Shown here in pieces: positions 1 to 10,732 of a stretch of DNA of 10,732 nucleotides. The translations under genes and the position numbers were made by a program. The notes under the pieces were generated by a model, which ran no database searches, was not told the DNA's origin, and worked only from the letters and a program-made list of their open reading frames with translations. The stretch is from the IMG/VR virus record IMGVR_UViG_2541047163_000014; one strand, 5' to 3'. The stretch comes from a virus. Taxonomy: Duplodnaviria > Heunggongvirae > Uroviricota > Caudoviricetes. How positions within the stretch are numbered: the first letter of the stretch is position 1; the number at the start of each line of letters is the position of its first letter.

Positions 1-68
1 CGCACTGACGGTTTCATCGTGGGTGTCGGTTATAAGTTCTGATTAGCCAGGTAACACAGTGTTATGAC

Positions 69-96
69 AGCCCGCCGGTTCAGGCGGGCTTTTTTG
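69..96 (+). terminator. Rho-independent terminator (8-bp GC-rich stem AGCCCGCC/GGCGGGCT, 6-nt loop, followed by TTTTTT) ending the upstream off-window gene
   Basis: Perfect inverted repeat agcccgcc-ggttca-ggcgggct followed by a T6 run, read directly from the sequence immediately upstream of the tail fibre start. Confidence 0.75.
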
Positions 97-106
97 TGGG
101 GTGAAT

Positions 107-3022
107 ATGGCAGTAAAGATTTCAGGTGTACTGAAAGACGGCACAGGAAAACCAGTACAGAACTGCACCATTCAACTGAAAGCCAGACGTAACAGCGCCA
201 CGGTGGTGGTGAACACGGTGGCCTCTGAAAATCCGGATGAAGCCGGTCGTTACAGCATGGACGTTGAGTACGGTCAGTACAGCGTTATTCTGTTGGTGGA
301 AGGGTTCCCGCCGTCACATGCCGGGACCATCACCGTGTATGAAGATTCTCAACCCGGTACGCTGAATGATTTTCTTGGTGCCATGACTGAGGATGATGTC
401 CGTCCGGAGGCACTGCGCCGTTTTGAGCTGATGGTGGAAGAGGTGGCGCGTAACGCGTCCGCGGTGGCACAGAACACGGCAGCCGCGAAGAAGTCAGCCA
501 GCGATGCCAGCACATCAGCCCGTGAGGCGGCAACCCATGCGACTGATGCTGCGGACTCAGCACGCGCAGCCAGCACGTCAGCCGGACAGGCCGCGTCGTC
601 GGCTCAGTCAGCGTCTTCCAGCGCAGGAACGGCATCAACAAAGGCTACTGAAGCATCAAAAAGTGCTGCCGCTGCAGAGTCCTCAAAAAGCGCGGCGGCT
701 ACCAGTGCCGGTGCGGCGAAAACGTCAGAAACGAATGCGGCAGTGTCACAACAATCAGCCGCCACTTCTGCATCCACCGCGACCACGAAAGCGTCAGAAG
801 CTGCCTCCTCAGCCAGGGATGCGTCGGCTTCAAAAGAGGCGGCAAAATCATCAGAAACGAGCGCAGCCTCGAGCGCCAGTAGTGCAGCCTCCTCGGCAAC
901 GGCGGCAGGCAATTCCGCGAAGGCGGCCAAAACGTCTGAGACAAACGCTAAGTCCTCTGAAACGGCAGCAGAACAGAGTGCCTCCGCAGCAGCAGGCTCA
1001 AAAACAGCGGCTGCATTATCTGCCAGTGCCGCGTCAACAAGTGCCGGGCAGGCCTCAGCCAGTGCCACCGCCGCCGGAAAATCGGCAGAAAGTGCCGCAT
1101 CGTCTGCTTCAACAGCCACAACGAAGGCTGGCGAAGCCACTGAACAGGCCAGCGCAGCAGCGAGTTCTGCTTCCGCAGCGAAGACATCCGAAACGAACGC
1201 GAAAGCGTCGGAAACCAGCGCAGAATCCTCAAAAACGGCTGCCGCATCGTCAGCCAGTTCGGCGGCGTCATCGGCATCATCTGCGTCTGCTTCAAAAGAT
1301 GAGGCGACCAGACAAGCGTCAGCAGCGAAGAGCAGCGCCACGACGGCATCCACGAAGGCGACAGAGGCAGCTGGTAGTGCGACGGCAGCAGCTCAGAGCA
1401 AAAGTACGGCGGAATCTGCAGCAACGCGCGCTGAGACAGCGGCAAAACGGGCAGAGGATATTGCATCCGCCGTGGCGCTTGAGGATGCGAGCACGACGAA
1501 AAAGGGGATAGTACAGCTCAGCAGTGCGACTAACAGCACTTCCGAGTCACTGGCGGCAACGCCAAAAGCCGTTAAGGCCGCGTATGAGCTGGCTAACGGG
1601 AAATACACCGCACAGGATGCAACGACAGCACAGAAAGGGATAGTTCAGCTTAGCAACGCGACCAACAGCACATCTGAAATGCTGGCGGCAACGCCAAAGT
1701 CGGTAAAGGCAGCCTATGACCTTGCTAACGGGAAATATACTGCTCAGGACGCTACGACAGCACAAAAAGGAATTGTCCAGCTCAGTAGTGCAACCAACAG
1801 CGCATCTGAAACGCTTGCCGCGACACCGAAAGCAGTGAAAGCAGCTAATGATAATGCGAATGGTCGGGTACCTTCTGCCCGTAAGGTGAATGGTAAGGCG
1901 CTTTCATCGGATATAACACTGACGCCGAAAGATATTGGTACGCTTAACTCAACAACAATGTCATTCAGCGGTGGTGCTGGTTGGTTCAAATTAGCAACGG
2001 TAACCATGCCACAGGCGAGTTCTGTTGTTTCAATTACGTTGATTGGTGGCGCGGGATTTAACGTGGGGTCACCTCAACAGGCAGGTATATCTGAACTTGT
2101 TTTGCGTGCAGGTAATGGTAATCCGAAGGGGATTACTGGTGCTTTATGGCAGCGCACATCGACAGGGTTTACAAATTTTGCCTGGGTCAATACATCTGGT
2201 GATACTTACGATATTTACGTTGCAATCGGAAATTATGCGACTGGTGTAAATATTCAATGGGATTATACCAGTAATGCCAGCGTGACGATTCATACGTCAC
2301 CAGCATATTCTGCTAATAAGCCGGAAGGGTTAACGGACGGTACAGTTTATTCACTCTATACGCCATCAGAGCAGTTTTATCCGCCTGGCGCACCAATCCC
2401 GTGGCCATCAGATACCGTTCCGTCTGGCTATGCCCTGATGCAGGGGCAGACTTTTGACAAATCTGCATACCCGAAACTTGCAGCCGCTTATCCGTCAGGC
2501 GTGATCCCTGATATGCGTGGCTGGACGATTAAGGGCAAACCTGCCAGTGGTCGGGCCGTATTGTCTCAGGAACAGGACGGCATTAAATCGCACACCCACA
2601 GCGCCAGCGCATCCAGTACGGATTTGGGGACGAAAACCACATCGTCGTTTGATTACGGCACTAAATCCACGAATAACACCGGGGCGCACACGCACAGTGT
2701 GAGCGGTACAGCCGCAAGTGCCGGAAACCATACTCATAGTGTCACAGGCGCATCAGCAGTCAGCCAGTGGTCACAAAATGGGTCAGTACATAAGGTAGTG
2801 TCTGCGGCCAGTGTGAATACAAGTGCTGCAGGAGCGCACACTCATAGTGTCAGCGGCACAGCTGCATCTGCAGGTGCTCACGCACATACTGTCGGTATTG
2901 GTGCTCATACGCACTCTGTTGCGATTGGCTCACATGGACACACCATCACCGTTAACGCTGCGGGTAACGCGGAAAACACTGTCAAAAACATCGCATTTAA
3001 CTACATTGTGAGGCTTGCATAA
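107..3022 (+). CDS. stf: Side tail fibre protein, lambda Stf / StfR-like (the ORF track starts at GTG 101; ATG 107 giving [12 protein letters not shown] is the more likely start)
   Basis: N-terminus [26 protein letters not shown]...[34 protein letters not shown] matches the lambda Stf N-terminal domain as I remember it. It is followed by a long Ala/Ser/Thr-rich low-complexity shaft, three tandem ~42-aa repeats ([42 protein letters not shown]) and a C-terminal module with His-x-His repeats ([15 protein letters not shown]...) ending [11 protein letters not shown], typical of Stf / P2 gpH / T4 gp37-type fibre tips. GGGG lies upstream of the ATG. Confidence 0.93.
1490..1850 (+). repeat. Three tandem ~126-bp coding repeats (42-aa units) within stf
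   Basis: Protein-level triple repeat [43 protein letters not shown] / [44 protein letters not shown] / [30 protein letters not shown]. The DNA copies differ mostly at synonymous positions. Confidence 0.8.
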
Positions 3023-3600
3023 TGGCATTCAGAATGAGTGAACAACCACGGACCATAAAAATTTATAATCTGCTGACCGGAACTAATGAATTTATTGGTG
3101 AAGGTGACGCATATATTCCGCCTCATACAGGTCTGCCAGCAAACAGTACCTATATTGCACCGCCAGATATTCCGGCTGGCTTCGTGGCTGTTTTCAACAG
3201 TGATGAGGCATCGTGGCATCTCGTTGAAGATCATCGGGGTAAAACGGTTTATGACGTGGCTTCCGGCGACGCGTTATTTATTTCTGAACTCGGTCCGTTA
3301 CCGGAAAATGTTACCTGGTTGTCGCCGGATGGAGAGTGTCAGAAGTGGAACGGCACATCCTGGGCGAAAGATGCAGAAGCAGAAAAACTGTTTCGGGTAC
3401 GGGAGGCAGAAGAAACAAAAAACAGCCTGATGCAGGTAGCCAGTGAGCATATTGCGCCACTTCAGGATGCCGTAGATTTGGATATTGCGACGGAGGAAGA
3501 GGCATCGTTACTGGCTGCATGGAAGACATATCGGGTATTGTTGAATCGTGTTGATACAACAGTAGCAGCGGATGTTGAGTGGCCAGTCGCCCCACAATAA
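3022..3600 (+). CDS. tfa: Tail fibre assembly protein (Tfa family chaperone)
   Basis: 192-aa product directly downstream of stf, with the ATG overlapping the stf TAA stop (TAATG). The sequence ([49 protein letters not shown]...EWPVAPQ) resembles lambda/Rac-type Tfa proteins, and the position is the canonical one for a fibre chaperone. Confidence 0.88.
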
Positions 3601-3606
3601 AAAGAA

Positions 3607-3636
3607 AAAGCCATCGACAGAAATATCGATGGCTTT
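3607..3636. terminator. Bidirectional intrinsic terminator between convergent tfa (+) and the acetyltransferase gene (-)
   Basis: 11-bp perfect stem aaagccatcga / tcgatggcttt with an 8-nt loop. T-rich tracts flank it on both strands (CTTTTTCTTTTTATT on the - strand, TTTATGT on the + strand). Confidence 0.75.
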
Positions 3637-3643
3637 ATGTACT

Positions 3644-4216
3644 CTATTTATACAATACAACACCACTCTTTTTAGTTATATATGTGCAGTTTGATGGTAT
3701 ATCTTTATTTATAAAAGACATTGCACCTATTTTTACATTATCCCCAATTTTACGTGATAATCCAATGATGCAACAATTAGCTCCGATATCAACGTTACTA
3801 CCAATTTTTACTCTTGAACTAGGCATATCACCATCTATCTGTCCAATGGTAGTATTCTGTCGTAATACCAGATTTTCACCCGCATCAACAGCAAAATGAA
3901 CAACAATTCCAGCATGATGGGGAATTGTCAACCCTTTTCCAATATTTGCGCCCAATCCTATTTCACAACCAAACTTGTTAATTATTTTACTGTTTAACTT
4001 TTTGGCTGCTTTCTTATGTAATTTATTACCATTAATATACATTTCGTTAGCCAACCGCCACCAGAAAAGGAAATTCCGGTTACGCTGCTTTTTCTCTCTT
4101 AAAAGCCTCCAGATATCCATACGTTTCCGCCGAATTACTTCATGTTTCCAGAAGTTTTTTAAATTAGTAGAGTTTCCAAATAAAACAAAGTGAATTGCCA
4201 TTAAGTAAGATAGCAC
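3644..4216 (-). CDS. Hexapeptide-repeat (left-handed beta-helix) acetyltransferase, serine-acetyltransferase (CysE/WcaB)-like; AT-rich moron. Start probably GTG 4216 (AAGGAG 6 nt upstream) or ATG 4201; the ORF-track GTG at 4249 is less likely
   Basis: Translation contains the SAT-family core ...FWWRLANEMYINGNKLHKKAAKKLNSKIINKFGCEIGLGANIGKGLTIPHHAGIVVHFAVDAGENLVLRQNTTIGQIDGDMPSSRVKIGSNVDIGANCCIIGLSRKIGDNVKIGAMSFINKDIPSN. That is an amphipathic N-terminal helix segment followed by [LIV]-G-x-x-x-x hexapeptide repeats. G+C is strikingly low (roughly one-third by eye) compared with the flanking phage genes. Stop is TAG at 3644-3646. Confidence 0.8.
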   Translation of the reverse strand: MLSYLMAIHFVLFGNSTNLKNFWKHEVIRRKRMDIWRLLREKKQRNRNFLFWWRLANEMYINGNKLHKKAAKKLNSKIINKFGCEIGLGANIGKGLTIPHHAGIVVHFAVDAGENLVLRQNTTIGQIDGDMPSSRVKIGSNVDIGANCCIIGLSRKIGDNVKIGAMSFINKDIPSNCTYITKKSGVVLYK

Positions 4217-4267
4217 GATAATCTCCTTAATTATTATTTCAGACCACACATGTTATAAGGTTAAGAG

Positions 4268-4296
4268 ATTATAAAATCCTGTTATTTGTTATTCAA
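4268..4296 (-). promoter_or_regulatory. Near-consensus sigma70 promoter for the acetyltransferase gene (-35 TTGAAT, 17-bp spacer, -10 TATAAT on the - strand)
   Basis: Read on the - strand: TTGAAT-AACAAATAACAGGATTT-TATAAT, about 50 nt upstream of the AAGGAG ribosome-binding site and GTG 4216. Confidence 0.6.
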
Positions 4297-4372
4297 AAAC
4301 AATTTTCTGAGAAGGACATACAACAGCAAGTCGCCAGTCACCTTCATCAGGAAATTGGCGACATACGTTAAA

Positions 4373-4867
4373 TCAGAGCAGCCCCTTAACTGAGCTGGCC
4401 GCGCTATTAAGGGATGATGTCACCTTATCTTTGAAGCCGGACAGCATATCGCTGAACGATGAGGATTGCAGGCGCTCCCGCAAATCCTCATCACAGCGTT
4501 CAAGAGTCAGTGAAAATTCTATCTTTTTCGCCTTACCGTAGCGATCAAACTCGGAGCGGGTCGTATTCGTTCCGGTCAGGACATACATGCCGTAAATCTG
4601 CCCGACGCCATCAATCAAAGGCCAAGGACGTCCTGTATATGCCTGCGTGGTCAACAACGACAGCGACACTTCGCCACCAGTAATCTCAGGATAAAGAACA
4701 CCAGAAAGAACGATGCGATCATCACCTGCACCGATATACTGCCAGCTTGCTGAACGGTTAACGCGTTCATTTTTCACATGTCGCCAGCTTTTGTTTTGCT
4801 GTAACTGCTGATGCGGCAACGTGCGCAGCTCAAAAACAAACATGCCGTAGATCATCATCATGGCCAT
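4373..4867 (-). CDS. Phage tail protein, P2 gpU-like (true start may be one of the ATGs at 4861/4858 rather than 4867)
   Basis: Translation MAMMMIYGMFVFELRTLPHQQL...IVLSGVLYPEITGG...IYGMYVLTG...KIEFSLTLERCDE... matches the conserved gpU family pattern. It lies immediately downstream of the tape measure stop, as in the P2 FI-FII-E-T-U-D order. Confidence 0.85.
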   Translation of the reverse strand: MAMMMIYGMFVFELRTLPHQQLQQNKSWRHVKNERVNRSASWQYIGAGDDRIVLSGVLYPEITGGEVSLSLLTTQAYTGRPWPLIDGVGQIYGMYVLTGTNTTRSEFDRYGKAKKIEFSLTLERCDEDLRERLQSSSFSDMLSGFKDKVTSSLNSAASSVKGLL

Positions 4868-4873
4868 GACTCC

Positions 4874-5710
4874 TCAATCTTTATCGTAAAAACTGCCACG
4901 CCTGGCACGGGCGCGCCGTTCCATTTCTGCCCTGACCATTTCGCCGACCAGTTTCGCCAGTTCGCGGGGATTCTGCGTAACAACGTTATGCAGATGAACA
5001 TGAATTTCACCGCCAAATCCGGAGGCAACAGGCTCCCGGTTACGGGAAGTTGCAGGAACTGATGCCACTGGCGATCGTATGGCCTCCACCACCGGGCGGG
5101 AGCTGGCCGCAACAACAGGGACCAGCGCCGGAGGCAGCGGAGCCGGGACCACGGGTGTGATATTAATTGCGGGGGCAGGCTTACTGACCTGCGCAATCTT
5201 CCGCTCCTGCCACTCCCCACGAACAGCAAGTGCGCGGGGCAGGTTCTTAAAGACAATATCGCCGGGGCCAATGCGTTTTTTTGTCTCATCAACCAGCTTA
5301 CCTGTGTTATCAGCAATTTTGCTGAGTCTGCGTAGCGTGCCGGTATTGCTGTCTGTGAGAGGTTTGTTGTCTTTGGGTTTATCATCTCCGGTGCCATTGC
5401 TATTTCCCGCAGACTTCGGCGGATTGATTTTCGCAATGTCTCCCTGAAACAGAGCAACCTTGTCCTGAAGAATGGCCGCACGTTGTGCGTCTTCGATTTT
5501 CTTGCGCGCCCTTTCCGCTTCATCCGGAAGCACACCGAGTTTTTCAAGTATCCACGCCAGCGTATCCAGCAACATTTTTGCAGGCGTCAGAACAAGCTGT
5601 AACGCACCACCAAGAACGTTACCGAATACCTCGCCAGCACTGGTACATTTATCCAGCGTTTCCTTGCTGGACTCCATCGGTGACAGCAGCGATTTAAACC
5701 AGTTAAACAC
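4874..5710 (-). CDS. Tail tape measure protein, C-terminal about 280 codons in a different frame (continuation of the gpT-like gene after the apparent frameshift)
   Basis: This ORF overlaps the 3' end of the 5587..7713 ORF in another frame. Its sequence (FNWFKSLLSPMESSKETLDKCTSAGEVFGNVLGGALQLV...) continues naturally from ...FERFGPVFDVIGSG if one base is restored near 5719-5721. It ends 6 nt before the gpU start. P2-type operons have no separate gene between T and U. Confidence 0.75.
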   Translation of the reverse strand: MFNWFKSLLSPMESSKETLDKCTSAGEVFGNVLGGALQLVLTPAKMLLDTLAWILEKLGVLPDEAERARKKIEDAQRAAILQDKVALFQGDIAKINPPKSAGNSNGTGDDKPKDNKPLTDSNTGTLRRLSKIADNTGKLVDETKKRIGPGDIVFKNLPRALAVRGEWQERKIAQVSKPAPAINITPVVPAPLPPALVPVVAASSRPVVEAIRSPVASVPATSRNREPVASGFGGEIHVHLHNVVTQNPRELAKLVGEMVRAEMERRARARRGSFYDKD

Positions 5711-7713
5711 CTGGCTGAACCGCTTCCGATTACGTCAAAAACAGGGCCAAACCGTTCAAAGGTGTCGCGCAACGGGGTCAGCCTTTCCATAATCCCGCTG
5801 AACACCCCGGCAAAGAAAGCCCTGATAGGATCCCAGTATTTCCAGATAAGAACGGCAGCTCCGGCAAGCGCAGCCACGATAAGACCAACCGGACTGAACA
5901 ACGCCCCGATAACGCCTCCCAGTAAAGAAACGGAACCCGTCACCATTCCCCATAGCGCAGGTAACACCCTGACGACATTCATTGACCGGGTAAGAATGTC
6001 AAAACCAAGACGCAGGGTGGCCAGCTTCCCGTAAAGCACCCCAATAACCAGCGACAACGAGCCAATCGTTGCAGTCATTGCCAGCAACGCACCGCCTGCT
6101 ATCAGTAGCTGGCGCGTCAGTACCGGATGGGCCTGCGCCAGCGAGGTGATTTTTTCAAGCACCCGCGTGAGCCACTGCGTGACAGAACGCAGCGGACCGT
6201 CAACCAGATCACTGATGCGAATACGAAGACCTTCCCATGCGCTGTCGAGATTTTTCAGGTCCCCATCAAGATTATCAGCCATTACTTTTGCGACGCGATC
6301 GGCCTCTCCCCTTGCCCCCTGCAATTCTCTGGTCAGTTTTTGCAGCTCTCCTGAACCAGCCGCCGCAACAAGCGTCTGCAAACCAACGAACGCCTCTTCT
6401 CCGGCGATGTCCTTGAAGAAGGAGACCTGGTCCACCTGTCCGTATTTTTGTGTCGCCTTATAGAGATCAAGCAGCACATCCTCCATCGGGCGCATTTTGC
6501 CTCTGGCGTCAGCAACTGACACCCCCAGCTCTTTCAGTGCATCAGCCGCAGCTTTTGGCGGTGATGCAAGGCGGGACAGACTTGCGCGCATGGCCGTGCC
6601 AGCATCGCTTCCGCGAAGACCATTATTGGCAAGCATCCCGGCCATGGCCGCCGCTTCTTCAAGACTGATACCAAGTTTTGCGGCAACCGGACCGGTATAC
6701 TTCATGGTTTCGCCCAGCGCGCGTAAATCAGTATTGGTCCGGGTAAATGCTGCTGTCAGCGTATCGCCCACCCGGTCCATTTGATCGGCTGTCAGGTTGA
6801 ACTGTGTGAGGATATTGGAGCCTATATCAGCCGTCTCGCCGAGTTCGACGCCACCTGCCAGCGCCATATTAAGAACACCGGGCAATGCGGCCTGAATGGC
6901 CTGCGGAGTAAAACCAGCCATTGCCAGAAAGCTCTGCCCACTGGCGGCATCACTCGCAGTAAACTGTGTTTCAGCAAGTTTTAACGCCTGCTCACGCAGC
7001 GCCTTAAACTGCGGGCTGTTTTTGTCGATTCGCGTCAGTGCCTGAACGCGGGACATCTCTTTGCCGAACCCGATCGCAGGCTGCAAAAAACGCCCGGCAG
7101 CATAGCCGCCCGCCGCTGCCGCACCAATTGCCAGCGCACCACCTGTTTTCAGTTTTCCCGCGGTTTCCTGCGCGTGCGAATACCGCTCACGCGCCTGCGT
7201 TACACGCGCAAGCGCCTGCCGTTCGCGTTCAAGCTGGTTGTTGTATTGTTCGGTGCGTCTGATGGCCTGCTGAATGGTGTTATCGCTGCCTGTCAGGGAA
7301 ATGCCGTGGCGTTTCAGCTCTCCGCCAAGTTCCCTCATTTTCTGAATTTCCCGTGTGCGCGATTCATTCAGGCGTTCAAGCCGGGTGCTTAACTGCTGCA
7401 TCAGCTTTTGTTGTTTTTCGCTGAGCACTGTACCCGTGCGTTGTAACTGATTAAGGGCGTTAAGCTGGCGTCGTGCTTTCACGATGCCAGCATCCGCTTT
7501 ACTGACAGCGTCGCGGGCGCGCTCAAATGATCGCGCCTGACGCTCGAGATTTTTGATCGCCCCCTGCGTTCGCTGGATGGAGTCACCAAACTGCCCCATC
7601 AGGCGGCGTGCGTTTTCGGCAGGTCGGGTCAGCCTGTCAACGGCGCTGAAAGCGACCCGGATATCAAGAGTCTTCATTGTCTGCATTCCCGCTGCGAAGT
7701 GCCGCCCGCTCAC
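5587..7713 (-). CDS. Tail tape measure protein (P2 gpT-like), N-terminal about 660 codons; the reading frame breaks near 5715-5740 (likely start ATG 7677 or 7686 rather than GTG 7713)
   Basis: Long, helical, Ala/Leu/Gln/Arg-rich protein with a hydrophobic Gly-rich segment (LIAGGALLAMTATIGSLSLVIGVLYG...GGVIGALFSPVGLIVAALAGAAVLIW) typical of tape measure proteins, positioned between E' and U. The last ~45 residues of this ORF (SARCLTGLNRCCHRWSPARKRW...) look like out-of-frame translation. Confidence 0.8.
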   Translation of the reverse strand: MSGRHFAAGMQTMKTLDIRVAFSAVDRLTRPAENARRLMGQFGDSIQRTQGAIKNLERQARSFERARDAVSKADAGIVKARRQLNALNQLQRTGTVLSEKQQKLMQQLSTRLERLNESRTREIQKMRELGGELKRHGISLTGSDNTIQQAIRRTEQYNNQLERERQALARVTQARERYSHAQETAGKLKTGGALAIGAAAAGGYAAGRFLQPAIGFGKEMSRVQALTRIDKNSPQFKALREQALKLAETQFTASDAASGQSFLAMAGFTPQAIQAALPGVLNMALAGGVELGETADIGSNILTQFNLTADQMDRVGDTLTAAFTRTNTDLRALGETMKYTGPVAAKLGISLEEAAAMAGMLANNGLRGSDAGTAMRASLSRLASPPKAAADALKELGVSVADARGKMRPMEDVLLDLYKATQKYGQVDQVSFFKDIAGEEAFVGLQTLVAAAGSGELQKLTRELQGARGEADRVAKVMADNLDGDLKNLDSAWEGLRIRISDLVDGPLRSVTQWLTRVLEKITSLAQAHPVLTRQLLIAGGALLAMTATIGSLSLVIGVLYGKLATLRLGFDILTRSMNVVRVLPALWGMVTGSVSLLGGVIGALFSPVGLIVAALAGAAVLIWKYWDPIRAFFAGVFSGIMERLTPLRDTFERFGPVFDVIGSGSARCLTGLNRCCHRWSPARKRWINVPVLARYSVTFLVVRYSLF

Positions 7714-8193
7714 GCCAGCTAACCACTTCGCCGGGCGTCATCATGAAGATTTCGGCGGGCGACCAGTTAAAAATAACGGCAATATCTGCCACAAAGTCTT
7801 CTATGTGCTCAAAGCACACAACCGTGATCAGGCTTCCGTCGCCTGTTCGTTCTTCCCGCCAGAGTCCGCACCGCTCAAAAAATTTACGGCAACCACACAT
7901 AACTGAATAAAGTCACGGGATGCCATTTTTTTGATCGTCACTTCATCCAGTCGCGGTGATGTCACGCGTGACAGCAGCGTAAACATGGATTCCGCTTTCA
8001 GATTCAGCACATCAGACAGCGACAAATCTCGCAGAGATCCAGCCTGCTCAATAGCCCCGGTGATCTCCACATACGTGATTTTTTCGCCGCCTCGCTCAAT
8101 TGGTTGGGTAAGTTTTACACCACGCTCACTGGTTTCTTTCACAGTGTCAGTAACTACCGTGTTTTCGGTATCGATGTTTTTCGTCTCTTTCAT
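7664..8193 (-). CDS. gpE+E'-like fusion product made by programmed -1 translational frameshift (E' extension 7664..7875 in the -1 frame)
   Basis: A -1 frame ORF (7664..7900) overlaps the end of E. On the - strand the sequence AAT TTT TTG contains the slippery heptamer T TTT TTG. The -1 frame continues ...KFFERCGLWREERTGDGSLITVVCFEHIEDFVADIAVIFNWSPAEIFMMTPGEVVSWRERAALRSG, resembling the conserved E' tail. Confidence 0.75.
7828..8193 (-). CDS. Tail assembly chaperone, P2 gpE-like
   Basis: 121-aa ORF between the tube and tape measure genes, with AAGGAG 7 nt upstream of the ATG. The C-terminus ...CVVAVNFLSGADSGGKNEQATEA spans the slippery heptamer. Confidence 0.8.
   Translation of the reverse strand: MKETKNIDTENTVVTDTVKETSERGVKLTQPIERGGEKITYVEITGAIEQAGSLRDLSLSDVLNLKAESMFTLLSRVTSPRLDEVTIKKMASRDFIQLCVVAVNFLSGADSGGKNEQATEA
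7876..7882 (-). other. Slippery heptamer TTTTTTG (- strand) for the E/E' -1 programmed ribosomal frameshift
   Basis: + strand caaaaaa at 7876-7882 is TTTTTTG on the - strand, in X XXY YYZ register with the E frame (AAT TTT TTG). Confidence 0.75.
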
Positions 8194-8247
8194 CAGGAAA
8201 CTCCTTTCAGTCAGAGGCGACGCACTGCGCCGCCTGCATATTACTTA

Positions 8248-8760
8248 TCAGCCAAGCCCAAGCGCGGAACGGATGCGATCGGGCACAATGTCCTTGCCGT
8301 CCTTCCGGTAAATGAAGTTCAGCAGGTCAATCTCCCACAACGGGCGATCGTTAACACTCAGCTTGTAGTAGGTGTTTTTAATGGCGTAAGTGTGTGATGT
8401 GGCTTCGCCCTGTTTGGCTTCCCCCATATCAATTTCCGTCACACGTCCGCGCATTTCGACTTCATACAGGTCGCTTTCATCATCGGTGTAGTATTCCCCC
8501 GCAAAACGCAGTAGCGTGCCGTCAATCGTGCCGCCATACTTCAGGAACAGCTCACGAACTGCGCCCCCCATGACAAAGCTCGCATCAAGCGCGGAGTCGT
8601 CCAGGCCGAGGTCAATACTTACCGCACCCATCATGCCACCACCCCGGTAGCTGTCGGTTTTGCGCGTCAGTTTAGGCAGGGTGACGGACGTCACCTTACC
8701 CACTTCGTTTTCACCATCCACAAACAGCGTAAAAAAGCGAAGATGTTTTGGTACAGCCAT
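8248..8760 (-). CDS. Tail tube protein, P2 gpFII-like
   Basis: Translation MAVPKHLRFFTLFVDGENEVGKVTSVTLPKLTRKTDSYRGGGMMGAVSIDLGLDD...YYKLSVNDRPLWEIDLLNFIYRKDG matches the FII tube family pattern (RFFTL.VDG...YRGGGM...YYKLS...EID). The start overlaps the sheath stop (ATGA-type coupling). Confidence 0.9.
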   Translation of the reverse strand: MAVPKHLRFFTLFVDGENEVGKVTSVTLPKLTRKTDSYRGGGMMGAVSIDLGLDDSALDASFVMGGAVRELFLKYGGTIDGTLLRFAGEYYTDDESDLYEVEMRGRVTEIDMGEAKQGEATSHTYAIKNTYYKLSVNDRPLWEIDLLNFIYRKDGKDIVPDRIRSALGLG

Positions 8761-9944
8761 CAGGCACCTCCCAGCACCGCAAATGCGGGACCAAAGAATT
8801 CATCAGTAAACGACTGGTAAAGCTCCATGTCTTCCAGCGGAGGAACGGGCGTATATTTGTAGCGAATACGCACACGCCCCTGACGTAAATTCGTGGTGCT
8901 GTTATCCTCGATGTCATACCAGCACTCCGCGCCAATCAGTTTCCCGGCAGTAACCAGTGAATCCAGTTTTGCCCTGATGGCACTGATAACATCCTTCACG
9001 TTCGCAGGTGTCAGTGGACTGTCGATGGTTTCAAACTGCGCTTCCGCAATTGAATCAGCCAGCACCTGTGCGGTTCGGGTATACACCTCAAAGATGTAGG
9101 CGTTCGTTTCCGGTGTGCGGTTGCCCCAGAAGCGGAACCCGTTGCGACGAATAATGGTCGTGATTTCTTTGTTGTTGAGGCTGTTGGCATCACTGTCTTC
9201 GGCCTGCAACGACCAGAACACATGCCTCGACATCCCAAGCACATTTTTAACCGGAACGTTGGACAGCGATTTGTGCCAGCCCTGCTCATGGTCAATGTAC
9301 GCACGAAGGCCGCACGCATAAGCAGGCGCGGGGAACGTTTCGTTTTTGCCACTTTTCAGGTTGTAGGCGATGAAGTCAGGCCATAAGAGCATCACCTCAC
9401 GTTCGTTGAATTTCTGGCGGTAGGTAATCGCCTCAGCCATCGTGTTACAACCATGACATGTGGCATACACAAACGCGCGCAGTTTACCCGCAATCACGCA
9501 CAGGGATTTTGTTACCGCCTCCGTGTCCAGCTCCGGCGCGGCCAGAATACGCGGACGGTATCCGATGCTTTCATCCTGCTCTGCAACAAGCAGCGCATAC
9601 ATCCCCGTATAGCTGCCGTCAGATTCAGAACCACCGATAACCAGTTGATCCTGCGTCTTACCGCCTTCTTCTTTGTGTTCAGCCACGCGAACGACGATCA
9701 CTTTTGTGCTCACCTGGTCTGCGATAGCCTTAAGCGCACGATAAAGCGTCCCCGTAGTCCCGCATTTTCCCAGCACGTCATTGACGCGGGTCAGCAGTGT
9801 GGGCTTGTTCAGCGGGAACAGCTCCGCGTCCGCATCATCTGCCGTTGCCACGATACCGATAACACTGGAATCAACATCATTAATCGCTGTTACCAGGTCG
9901 GTACTTTCCGTAACACGGGCACCATGAAAACGAGTTTCACTCAT
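8760..9944 (-). CDS. Contractile tail sheath protein, P2 gpFI-like
   Basis: 394-aa product (MSETRFHGARVTESTDLVTAINDVDSSVIGIVATADDADAELFPLNKPTLLTRVNDVLGKCGTTGTLYRALKAIADQ...) resembling P2 FI-family sheath proteins. AAGGGG ribosome-binding site 8 nt upstream of the ATG. It lies immediately upstream of the tube gene. Confidence 0.9.
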   Translation of the reverse strand: MSETRFHGARVTESTDLVTAINDVDSSVIGIVATADDADAELFPLNKPTLLTRVNDVLGKCGTTGTLYRALKAIADQVSTKVIVVRVAEHKEEGGKTQDQLVIGGSESDGSYTGMYALLVAEQDESIGYRPRILAAPELDTEAVTKSLCVIAGKLRAFVYATCHGCNTMAEAITYRQKFNEREVMLLWPDFIAYNLKSGKNETFPAPAYACGLRAYIDHEQGWHKSLSNVPVKNVLGMSRHVFWSLQAEDSDANSLNNKEITTIIRRNGFRFWGNRTPETNAYIFEVYTRTAQVLADSIAEAQFETIDSPLTPANVKDVISAIRAKLDSLVTAGKLIGAECWYDIEDNSTTNLRQGRVRIRYKYTPVPPLEDMELYQSFTDEFFGPAFAVLGGA

Positions 9945-10101
9945 AGCTTCAGCCCCTTGTATCCGTTAAATGATTCGGCAACAATCATCACCCACCACGC
10001 GCGTAATCTCACCCCTGCGCCGTTCTCCCGCCACGGCGACAACAAAAAGCAGTAACCCCCTCCGCACGCACATGCGACCATGCCGCACAGGGAGGGAACA
10101 G

Positions 10102-10368
10102 ATGACCGACACCACCATGCAATTGCTCAGTCAGGGCACAGACCACGTGAAAGTGCCGGATTTTGATATTCTCGCGGAGGGTAAAACGCTGTCAGGCGTG
10201 GCAGAGCGCCTGATGAGCCTGTCACTGACCGACAACCGGGGATTTGAGGCGGACCAGCTCACCATCACGCTGGATGATGCAGATGGTCAGTTGCAGCTAC
10301 CGCCACGGGGCGCGCGCCTGACGGTTCTCATTGGCTGGAAAGGAGAACCGCTGACAGAAAAAGGCACT
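10102..10368 (+). pseudogene. P2 gpD-like tail protein (late control gene D family), N-terminal ~90 codons only; truncated by IS insertion
   Basis: From ATG 10102 (GGGAGGGA upstream): MTDTTMQLLSQGTDHVKVPDFDILAEGKTLSGVAERLMSLSLTDNRGFEADQLTITLDDADGQLQLPPRGARLTVLIGWKGEPLTEKG, which contains the gpD-family N-terminal signature (LSLT.TDNRGFEADQL.I.LDD.DG...PRRGA.L...GW.G). The frame then runs into IS terminal inverted-repeat sequence at about 10369 and stops. Full-length gpD is about 390 aa. Confidence 0.75.
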
Positions 10369-10519
10369 TGTAGATTCAATCTGTCAATGCAACACCCCTT
10401 TCAATTATCTCTTTCGGTGTTTTGAACTTCAGTGTCTTTCTCGGTCTGTTGTTTAGCTGAGCAGCAACCAGATCTTCATGTTGAGTATATTGGGCAAGAC
10501 ATGTCTTTTTAGGAAAGTA
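10369..10519 (-). mobile_element. IS30-family insertion sequence, terminal fragment (inverted repeat plus the last ~47 codons of the transposase gene)
   Basis: TGTAGATTCAATCTGTCAATGCAACACC at 10369 closely resembles the IS30 terminal inverted repeat (TGTAGATTCAAT.GGTCAA.GCAAC) as I remember it. The - strand encodes ...YFPKKTCLAQYTQHEDLVAAQLNNRPRKTLKFKTPKEIIERGVALTD-stop, with the stop inside the inverted repeat, as in IS30-family transposases. The fragment ends abruptly at the IS3-family end. Confidence 0.7.
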
Positions 10520-10732
10520 TGAACCGCCCCGGTTTTCCTGGAGAGTGTTTTATCTGTGAACTCAGGCTGCCAGATCATCGTTTCCGATGGAAGCATAATA
10601 AGCTTTTTCTGCTTCTGCCGGAGGAGTATGGCCCAGCCTTCCCAGCAATCGTCGATTGTTATACCAGTCCACCCACGTTAGTGTGGCCAGTTCCACTTCT
10701 GCACGGTTTTTCCAGCTCTTACGGTGTATTAC
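10520..10732 (-). mobile_element. IS3-family element (IS629/IS1203-like), terminal inverted repeat plus 3' end of transposase orfB; continues beyond the window
   Basis: The end sequence TGAACCGCCCCGG... is a typical IS3-family terminal inverted repeat (TG...). The - strand encodes ...VIHRKSWKNRAEVELATLTWVDWYNNRRLLGRLGHTPPAEAEKAYYASIGNDDLAA-stop (stop at 10562-10564), a typical IS3-family orfB C-terminus. Confidence 0.75.

Follow-up and report, generated by a model that had tools for sequence, protein, structure and literature searches.

The right-hand end of the 10,732-nucleotide stretch of DNA analysed here (hereafter the window) very probably holds the right-hand decay front of Sp13, a P88-like prophage of the P2 group, in an E. 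coli O157:H7 strain near F7349. This front would have formed in three steps, in which IS30 entered the tail gene gpD, the host lineage then lost further parts of the prophage, and IS629 finally entered the inactivated IS30. The evidence consists of sequence identities, junctions, two target-site duplications, empty and filled insertion sites and the state of the same prophage in sister genomes. The nesting of insertion sequences in gpD is already known, since it is annotated in public genomes, and is ordinary prophage decay.

Source prophage and matching genomes

Positions 3067-10732 of the window belong to Sp13, a P88-like Xuanwuvirus prophage found in E. coli O157:H7. This part is collinear with O157:H7 strain F7349 and differs from it by four mismatches, none of which lies in 4000-10732. 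Positions 10000-10732 match a single place in F7349 at 100% identity, and this strain alone, among the 5,426 complete genomes searched, has a full-length match in one piece. Strain Sakai is 100% identical to the window over 4000-10519. The RefSeq annotation of F7349 gives, in order, the tail sheath (minus strand), 'phage late control D family protein, missing C-terminus', 'IS30 family transposase, missing N-terminus', 'IS3-like element IS1203 family transposase', and 'IS30-like element IS30 family transposase, missing C-terminus'. In Sakai, the region is annotated as 'prophage Sp13, P2-like phage' with 'IS30 partial'. The chromosomal locus of Sp13, from yecA to leuZ, is common to Sakai and the window prophage, and Sakai Sp13 (ECs_2646/ECs_2647) has the same gpD::IS30 junction as the window. 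We take Sakai Sp13 to be the CP-933T prophage of EDL933.

An earlier reading of the window from its letters alone (the sequence-only reading) had described the element as a decaying prophage. This description fits Sp13, which is the sole P2-like prophage of O157 Sakai and is defective, with most morphogenetic genes missing (PMC2669165). Despite these defects, Sp13 excises, replicates and is inducible by mitomycin C (PMC2669165).

Judged by its tail genes, the window phage is nearer to P88 (Xuanwuvirus) than to P2 itself. Over the 1069 bp of the tail region that were compared, it shares 96-98% nucleotide identity with P88, P884B11 and their relatives. Identity to P88 (Xuanwuvirus, Peduoviridae; gpD = SF19_gp51) is 97.5% in the sheath-gpD region, and the gene order is that of P88, with the tape-measure, gpE, tube and sheath genes on the minus strand and gpD on the plus strand. 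The sheath-tube-E-T-U block is thus on the strand opposite to gpD (window 8760-10368). In P2, that operon ends with gpD. The divergent orientation of sheath and gpD is normal for Xuanwuvirus, because it is shared by P88 and its relatives. The deposited P88 genome is that of a complete phage, in which the 366-aa gpD is intact, the target AAAAAGGCACTTACATTG is uninterrupted and no insertion sequence is present.

The left part of the window has a different origin. Window 1-3066 differs from the F7349 RefSeq assembly, and positions 1 to about 3207 belong to a lambdoid prophage rather than to Sp13, with lom, a gene for the side tail fibre and the beginning of the tail-fibre assembly gene tfa. This segment has two mismatches to EDL933 at 1.735 Mb. 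The switch to Sp13 falls inside tfa, at about 3067-3207, within some 140 bp common to both prophages. Sakai Sp13 has a truncated IS629 to the left of tfa, whereas the window has the lambdoid left 3 kb instead. A search of the 5,426 complete E. coli genomes did not turn up the lambdoid/Sp13 join. Recombination between prophages has been documented in O157 (PMC7430833), and the left join is either a real inter-prophage recombination or the product of a chimeric contig. Between tfa and a tail gene at 4373-4867, a serine O-acetyltransferase gene (3644-4216, minus strand) is oriented opposite to tfa. The gene is kept in 493/89, LSU61 and DEC5B and looks like a cargo gene (moron) of this phage group.

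The gpD fragment

The intergenic region at 9945-10101 separates the sheath gene (8760-9944, minus strand) from gpD (plus strand) and, according to the sequence and the F7349 annotation, holds the ribosome-binding site GGAGG of gpD. The ATG of gpD follows at 10102, just after this motif, and the frame reads MTDTTMQLLSQG... for 89 codons to 10368. The segment at 10102-10368 (plus strand) is therefore gpD', the N-terminal part of the tail baseplate-hub gene ('late control D'), as identified from its identity to P88 gpD and the annotation of F7349. It keeps 89 of about 366-369 codons, in close agreement with the approximately 90 proposed from the sequence, and 87 of the 89 residues are identical to the N-terminus of the 366-aa gpD of P88. 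The frame continues into IS30 and stops at 10423-10425, which gives the 107-aa product annotated as ECs_2646 in Sakai.

The Pfam domain Phage_GPD (PF05954, 'phage tail baseplate hub') spans aa 91-346 of a full-length gpD homologue (3.9e-17). The 89-aa fragment has no match in Pfam or NCBIfam, and this domain maps beyond it. Thus, gpD' lacks nearly the whole recognisable domain, and the assignment rests on the 87/89 identity to P88, since the fragment scores with no profile. From what is known of gpD in P2, its loss would abolish assembly of the contractile tail.

The remainder of gpD, for which the sequence-only reading had proposed a search, survives only in part. What persists beyond IS30 in Sakai and F7349 is about 75 bp of gpD, and a further 6 bp are missing there. 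The deletion that follows, of about 3.3 kb, took away the remaining gpD sequence together with ogr, hok and a gene of the YecA family. Both the IS30 and the IS629 insertions have their far sides beyond the window edge, and these were read from F7349.

The IS30 element

The right arm of IS30 occupies 10369-10519 (151 bp, minus strand), as shown when it is aligned with the 1221-bp elements in 493/89 and SMN013SH2. The 26-bp terminal inverted repeat of IS30, which starts with TGTAGATTCAAT, is present at 10369-10394. Its sequence, TGTAGATTCAATCTGTCAATGCAACA, is identical to the right repeat of the K-12 IS30 copy and to that of the 493/89 copy, and the IS30-like repeat noted earlier at about 10369 is thereby identified. 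The whole of 10369-10519 equals the first 154 nt of the 1221-bp element, counted from the right end, minus a single 3-bp deletion at 10474/10475. On the minus strand, the transposase stop codon lies at 10376-10378, next to 47 C-terminal codons (10379-10519) ending in ...KEIIERGVALTD, and the transposase C-terminus that had been read at 10376-10519 is correct. The 3-bp deletion is in frame and removes TAG on the plus strand, or one Leu codon of the transposase. Sakai and F7349 share it, and the IS30 copies in 493/89, SMN013SH2 and 2017C-4109 do not have it. The 47-aa fragment alone had no match in Pfam and NCBIfam profile searches. At the identical site in 493/89, IS30 is 1221 bp long and encodes a 383-aa protein, the length of the IS30 DDE transposase, that matches NCBIfam transpos_IS30 (3e-82).

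The flanks of IS30 read ...GGCACT on one side and CTTACATTG on the other in 493/89, Sakai, F7349 and SMN013SH2. The dinucleotide CT stands on both sides as the target-site duplication; one copy is at 10367-10368 in the window and the second lies past the window edge. A 2-bp duplication is typical of IS30 (PMC9333248). The uninterrupted target in gpD, found in P88 and in O55:H7 strain DEC5B, is GGCACTTACATTG. These duplications and strains with an unoccupied site are what the sequence-only reading had named as the way to examine the insertions.

The annotation 'IS30 partial' in Sakai (1114 bp) suggested an element without its left end. This possibility was rejected, as the left repeat and the CT duplication are both present. 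The shortfall reflects an internal 46-bp deletion together with the 3-bp deletion. The 46-bp deletion lies outside the window and removes the start codon of the IS30 transposase in Sakai and F7349. The ancestral copy shares its 26-bp right repeat, 2-bp duplication and 383-aa transposase with IS30 of the K-12 type (1221 bp, IS30 family). The IS30 of the present lineage differs from the K-12 element in the 3-bp deletion inside the window, the 46-bp deletion outside it, and the split by IS629. The IS30 piece in the window is one arm of an interrupted element, not a truncated remnant.

The IS629 element and its junction with IS30

The right end of IS629 (= IS1203v) occupies 10520-10732 (minus strand) and matches the F7349 element base for base over 213 bp, up to the window edge. 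The boundary at 10519/10520 and the assignment to the IS3 family, with the C-terminus of orfB on the minus strand, had been read correctly from the sequence. IS629 begins at 10520 with TGAACCGCCCCGG, the 25-bp imperfect inverted repeat spans 10520-10544, and the window from 10520 onwards reads TGAACCGCCCCGGTTTTCCTGGAGA. On the minus strand, the stop codon of orfB is at 10562-10564 and is adjoined by 56 C-terminal codons (10565-10732) ending in ...ASIGNDDLAA. The orfB frame leaves the window at its right edge, and orfA lies outside. The 56-codon fragment gives a partial match to NCBIfam transpos_IS3 (E 7e-08, positions 329-369 of 369) that is below the whole-protein cut-off, and a weak C-terminal match to Pfam rve_3.

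In F7349, the element is 1310 bp long, with 25-bp imperfect repeats and orfA/orfB, for which PGAP annotates a programmed frameshift, in keeping with the -1 frameshift of IS629/IS1203. The orfB product, which in these elements has a DDE (rve) domain, matches transpos_IS3 at 2.9e-94. The element is 100% identical over 1310 bp to the 'insertion sequence: IS629' of phage VT2-Sakai (AP000422) and likewise to 'IS1203v' in phage Stx2 II. Only the last 213 bp of the element lie in the window. Chance similarity is not an issue for either insertion sequence, because the identity to multicopy elements is exact over hundreds of bases.

The target of IS629 within IS30 can be read in both states. The site is filled in the window and F7349; in the latter, ...AGGAAAGTA precedes IS629 and GTACTGCCG... 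follows it, with GTA on both sides, and IS30 resumes beyond. In Sakai and EDL933, gpD::IS30 is present but the IS629 target is empty, reading AGGAAAGTACTGCCG within ...AGGAAAGTACTGCC... in Sakai. The copy of GTA in the window lies inside IS30 at 10517-10519. Target duplications of IS629 are 3-4 bp long (PMC3271280). IS30 therefore came first and IS629 second, because the empty IS629 site is present inside the IS30 of sister strains. The proposed nesting of the two elements is borne out by this comparison. Past position 10732, a nested insertion would be followed by the left end of IS629 and then by GTACTGCCGAATTAGCC and the remaining IS30. For the window's own genome, the far IS629 junction is assumed from F7349, as the window ends 213 bp into IS629.

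Alternatively, the IS30 arm might adjoin IS629 through a deletion or rearrangement associated with IS629, so that the rest of IS30 would not be found beyond it. Such events do occur in this setting. CEC13002 has IS629 at IS30 offset ~887 with the sequence deleted to 4 bp into gpD, excision dependent on the IS-excision enhancer (IEE) makes deletions beside insertion sequences in O157 (PMC9943667), and the window has a second rearrangement signature at its left. However, the 6.7 kb up to the window edge equal F7349 without mismatch, the junction base is identical, and the insertion in F7349 is clean and has the GTA duplication, which makes an adjacent deletion improbable. Still less credible is an assembly artefact, in which a contig was chimerically joined through a multicopy insertion sequence: both window ends lie in repeats (lambdoid tail-fibre genes on the left, IS629 on the right), as is typical of short-read contigs, and the left join is unique to the window among the genomes searched, but the gpD/IS30 and IS30/IS629 junctions recur exactly, with matching target duplications, in the complete-level RefSeq assembly of F7349, and the gpD/IS30 junction is present in 256 complete genomes.

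Nested insertion, with IS629 lying inside IS30, is thus the preferred reading. A nested IS30/IS911 on plasmid pSFO157 (PMC7175801), likened here by its description, also combines an IS3-family element with IS30 in the O157 lineage; the IS3-family member and the replicon differ from those of the window.

Sister genomes and the proposed order of events

Related genomes preserve different states of the same prophage. In 493/89, a sorbitol-fermenting O157 strain, gpD contains an intact 1221-bp IS30 and is the sole annotated pseudogene of the prophage. The genes for head, lysis, baseplate, fibre and tail are all kept, as are ogr and hok, and taking out IS30 and one CT gives back a gpD ORF of 369 aa. 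In O157:H7 strain LSU61, this prophage occupies the same locus, and its IS30 is gone, leaving a scar that reads GACAGAAA-CTACA-CTTACATTG. At this scar (L008, 16730-16750, corresponding to window 10360-10369), 8 bp of gpD are lost and gpD is frameshifted. The CTACA segment equals the last 5 bp of the left repeat of IS30, and the scar looks like an imprecise excision of the element. The insertion of IS30 into gpD predates the split of the lineages, because LSU61 keeps this scar. In EHEC, IEE reportedly stimulates IS30-family elements to excise together with neighbouring sequence (PMC9943667), which suggests it as a putative mechanism for the LSU61 scar.

In typical O157:H7 strains (Sakai, F7349), IS30 has the 3-bp and 46-bp deletions and is followed by the gpD remnant of about 75 bp and the gap of about 3.3 kb. 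The genes from portal to tail fibre, on the opposite side of typical Sp13, have given way to a truncated IS629. The tape-measure gene (window 4874-7713, minus strand) is broken into two ORFs that overlap (5587-7713 and 4874-5710). The F7349 annotation calls it 'frameshifted' and that of Sakai a pseudogene, and it is intact in 493/89, LSU61 and DEC5B. By this distribution, the tape-measure lesion is specific to typical O157:H7. The IS629 of F7349 and the window entered an IS30 that was already dead, since the deletion of the start codon is shared by Sakai and F7349.

The distribution of these states across strains suggests the following order of events, with the relative order of the later deletions left aside. 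In the first step, IS30 would have transposed into gpD at codon 89/90 and duplicated CT in a prophage that was otherwise complete. In the second step, the typical O157:H7 lineage would have decayed through the deletion of about 3.3 kb, which took most of the gpD C-terminus, ogr and hok, the 46-bp loss of the IS30 transposase start codon, and the tape-measure frameshift; the truncated IS629 would mark the lost head and baseplate genes. In the third step, an intact IS629 would have entered the dead IS30 in one sublineage and duplicated GTA; it lies 151 bp inside the right end of IS30 and shares the orientation of that element. This last insertion was probably selectively neutral. IS629 is highly active, with 22-25 copies per O157:H7 genome, 62% of them in prophages or prophage-like elements, where insertions carry no cost and accumulate (PMC3271280). 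These copy numbers also agree with the earlier description of IS629-like elements as a hallmark of certain lineages.

Distribution and possible target hot spots

The gpD::IS30 junction, as counted above in 256 of the 5,426 complete genomes, is far more widespread than the IS629 junction at 10519/10520, which occurs in F7349 alone. Other strains have IS629 elsewhere in the same gpD::IS30 copy. The insertion is at offset 49 with a CGG duplication in NZRM4169, at offset ~250 with an AAA duplication in 2017C-4109, and at offset ~887 with an adjacent deletion in CEC13002.

In strain SMN013SH2, a different P88-like prophage, at another locus next to flk, also has IS30 in gpD; the dinucleotide that was hit and the orientation of the element are the same. 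On either side of this copy, gpD agrees with the P88 allele, with differences from the O157 version at 88 bp to its left and 34 bp to its right. Most simply, this would be an independent insertion. Movement of the same event by recombination is unlikely, given that the flanks are those of the P88 allele and not of O157. IS30 prefers hot-spot sequences (PMC9333248). In a single comparison, which is weak evidence, the left half of the gpD target (AAAAAGGC) equals the left flank of one K-12 IS30 copy, whose flanks look palindromic.

IS629-type junctions lie within a few bases of one IS30 position in three independent contexts and in both orientations. In F7349, the junction follows ...AAAGTA. In SMN013SH2, an IS629-like element (95% identical to IS629) follows ...GGAAA in the opposite orientation, with an AAA duplication; it lies 3 bp from the F7349 site (L004, 6103-9748). 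In a plasmid of strain a15 (L005), the IS1203 junction follows ...AAAGT. There, a 153-bp IS30 right arm adjoins IS1203 one base earlier than in the window (4001-5463). Matches to this plasmid junction, near-identical and in one piece, occur in many large E. coli plasmids of poultry, pig and human origin. The far end of the plasmid IS1203 adjoins what we take to be IS1, which fits the neighbouring annotation of an IS1 transposase.

IS629 has been published as an element without sequence-specific targets. The clustering of IS629 at one spot in IS30 is suggestive, and it was seen with queries anchored on this junction, while insertions at other offsets also occur. It is conceivable, if somewhat doubtful, that gpD GAAAAAGGCA/CT/TACATTG is a hot spot for IS30 and that a position about 150 bp from the right end of IS30 (...TTTTTAGGAAAGTA..., around TTTTTAGGAAAGTACTGCC) is favoured by IS629-type elements.

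Implications

Sp13 in the window is a textbook case of stepwise prophage decay by insertion sequences and carries little weight for biology at large. The IS629-in-IS30 junction, found in one of 5,426 genomes, is a possible marker for strain typing, much like IS629 site profiles (PMC3271280). The series formed by 493/89, LSU61, Sakai and F7349 provides a clean, ordered record of how a prophage is dismantled. Should gpD and IS30 really contain hot spots, for IS30 and IS629 respectively, this would add a little to what is known of target choice by these elements.
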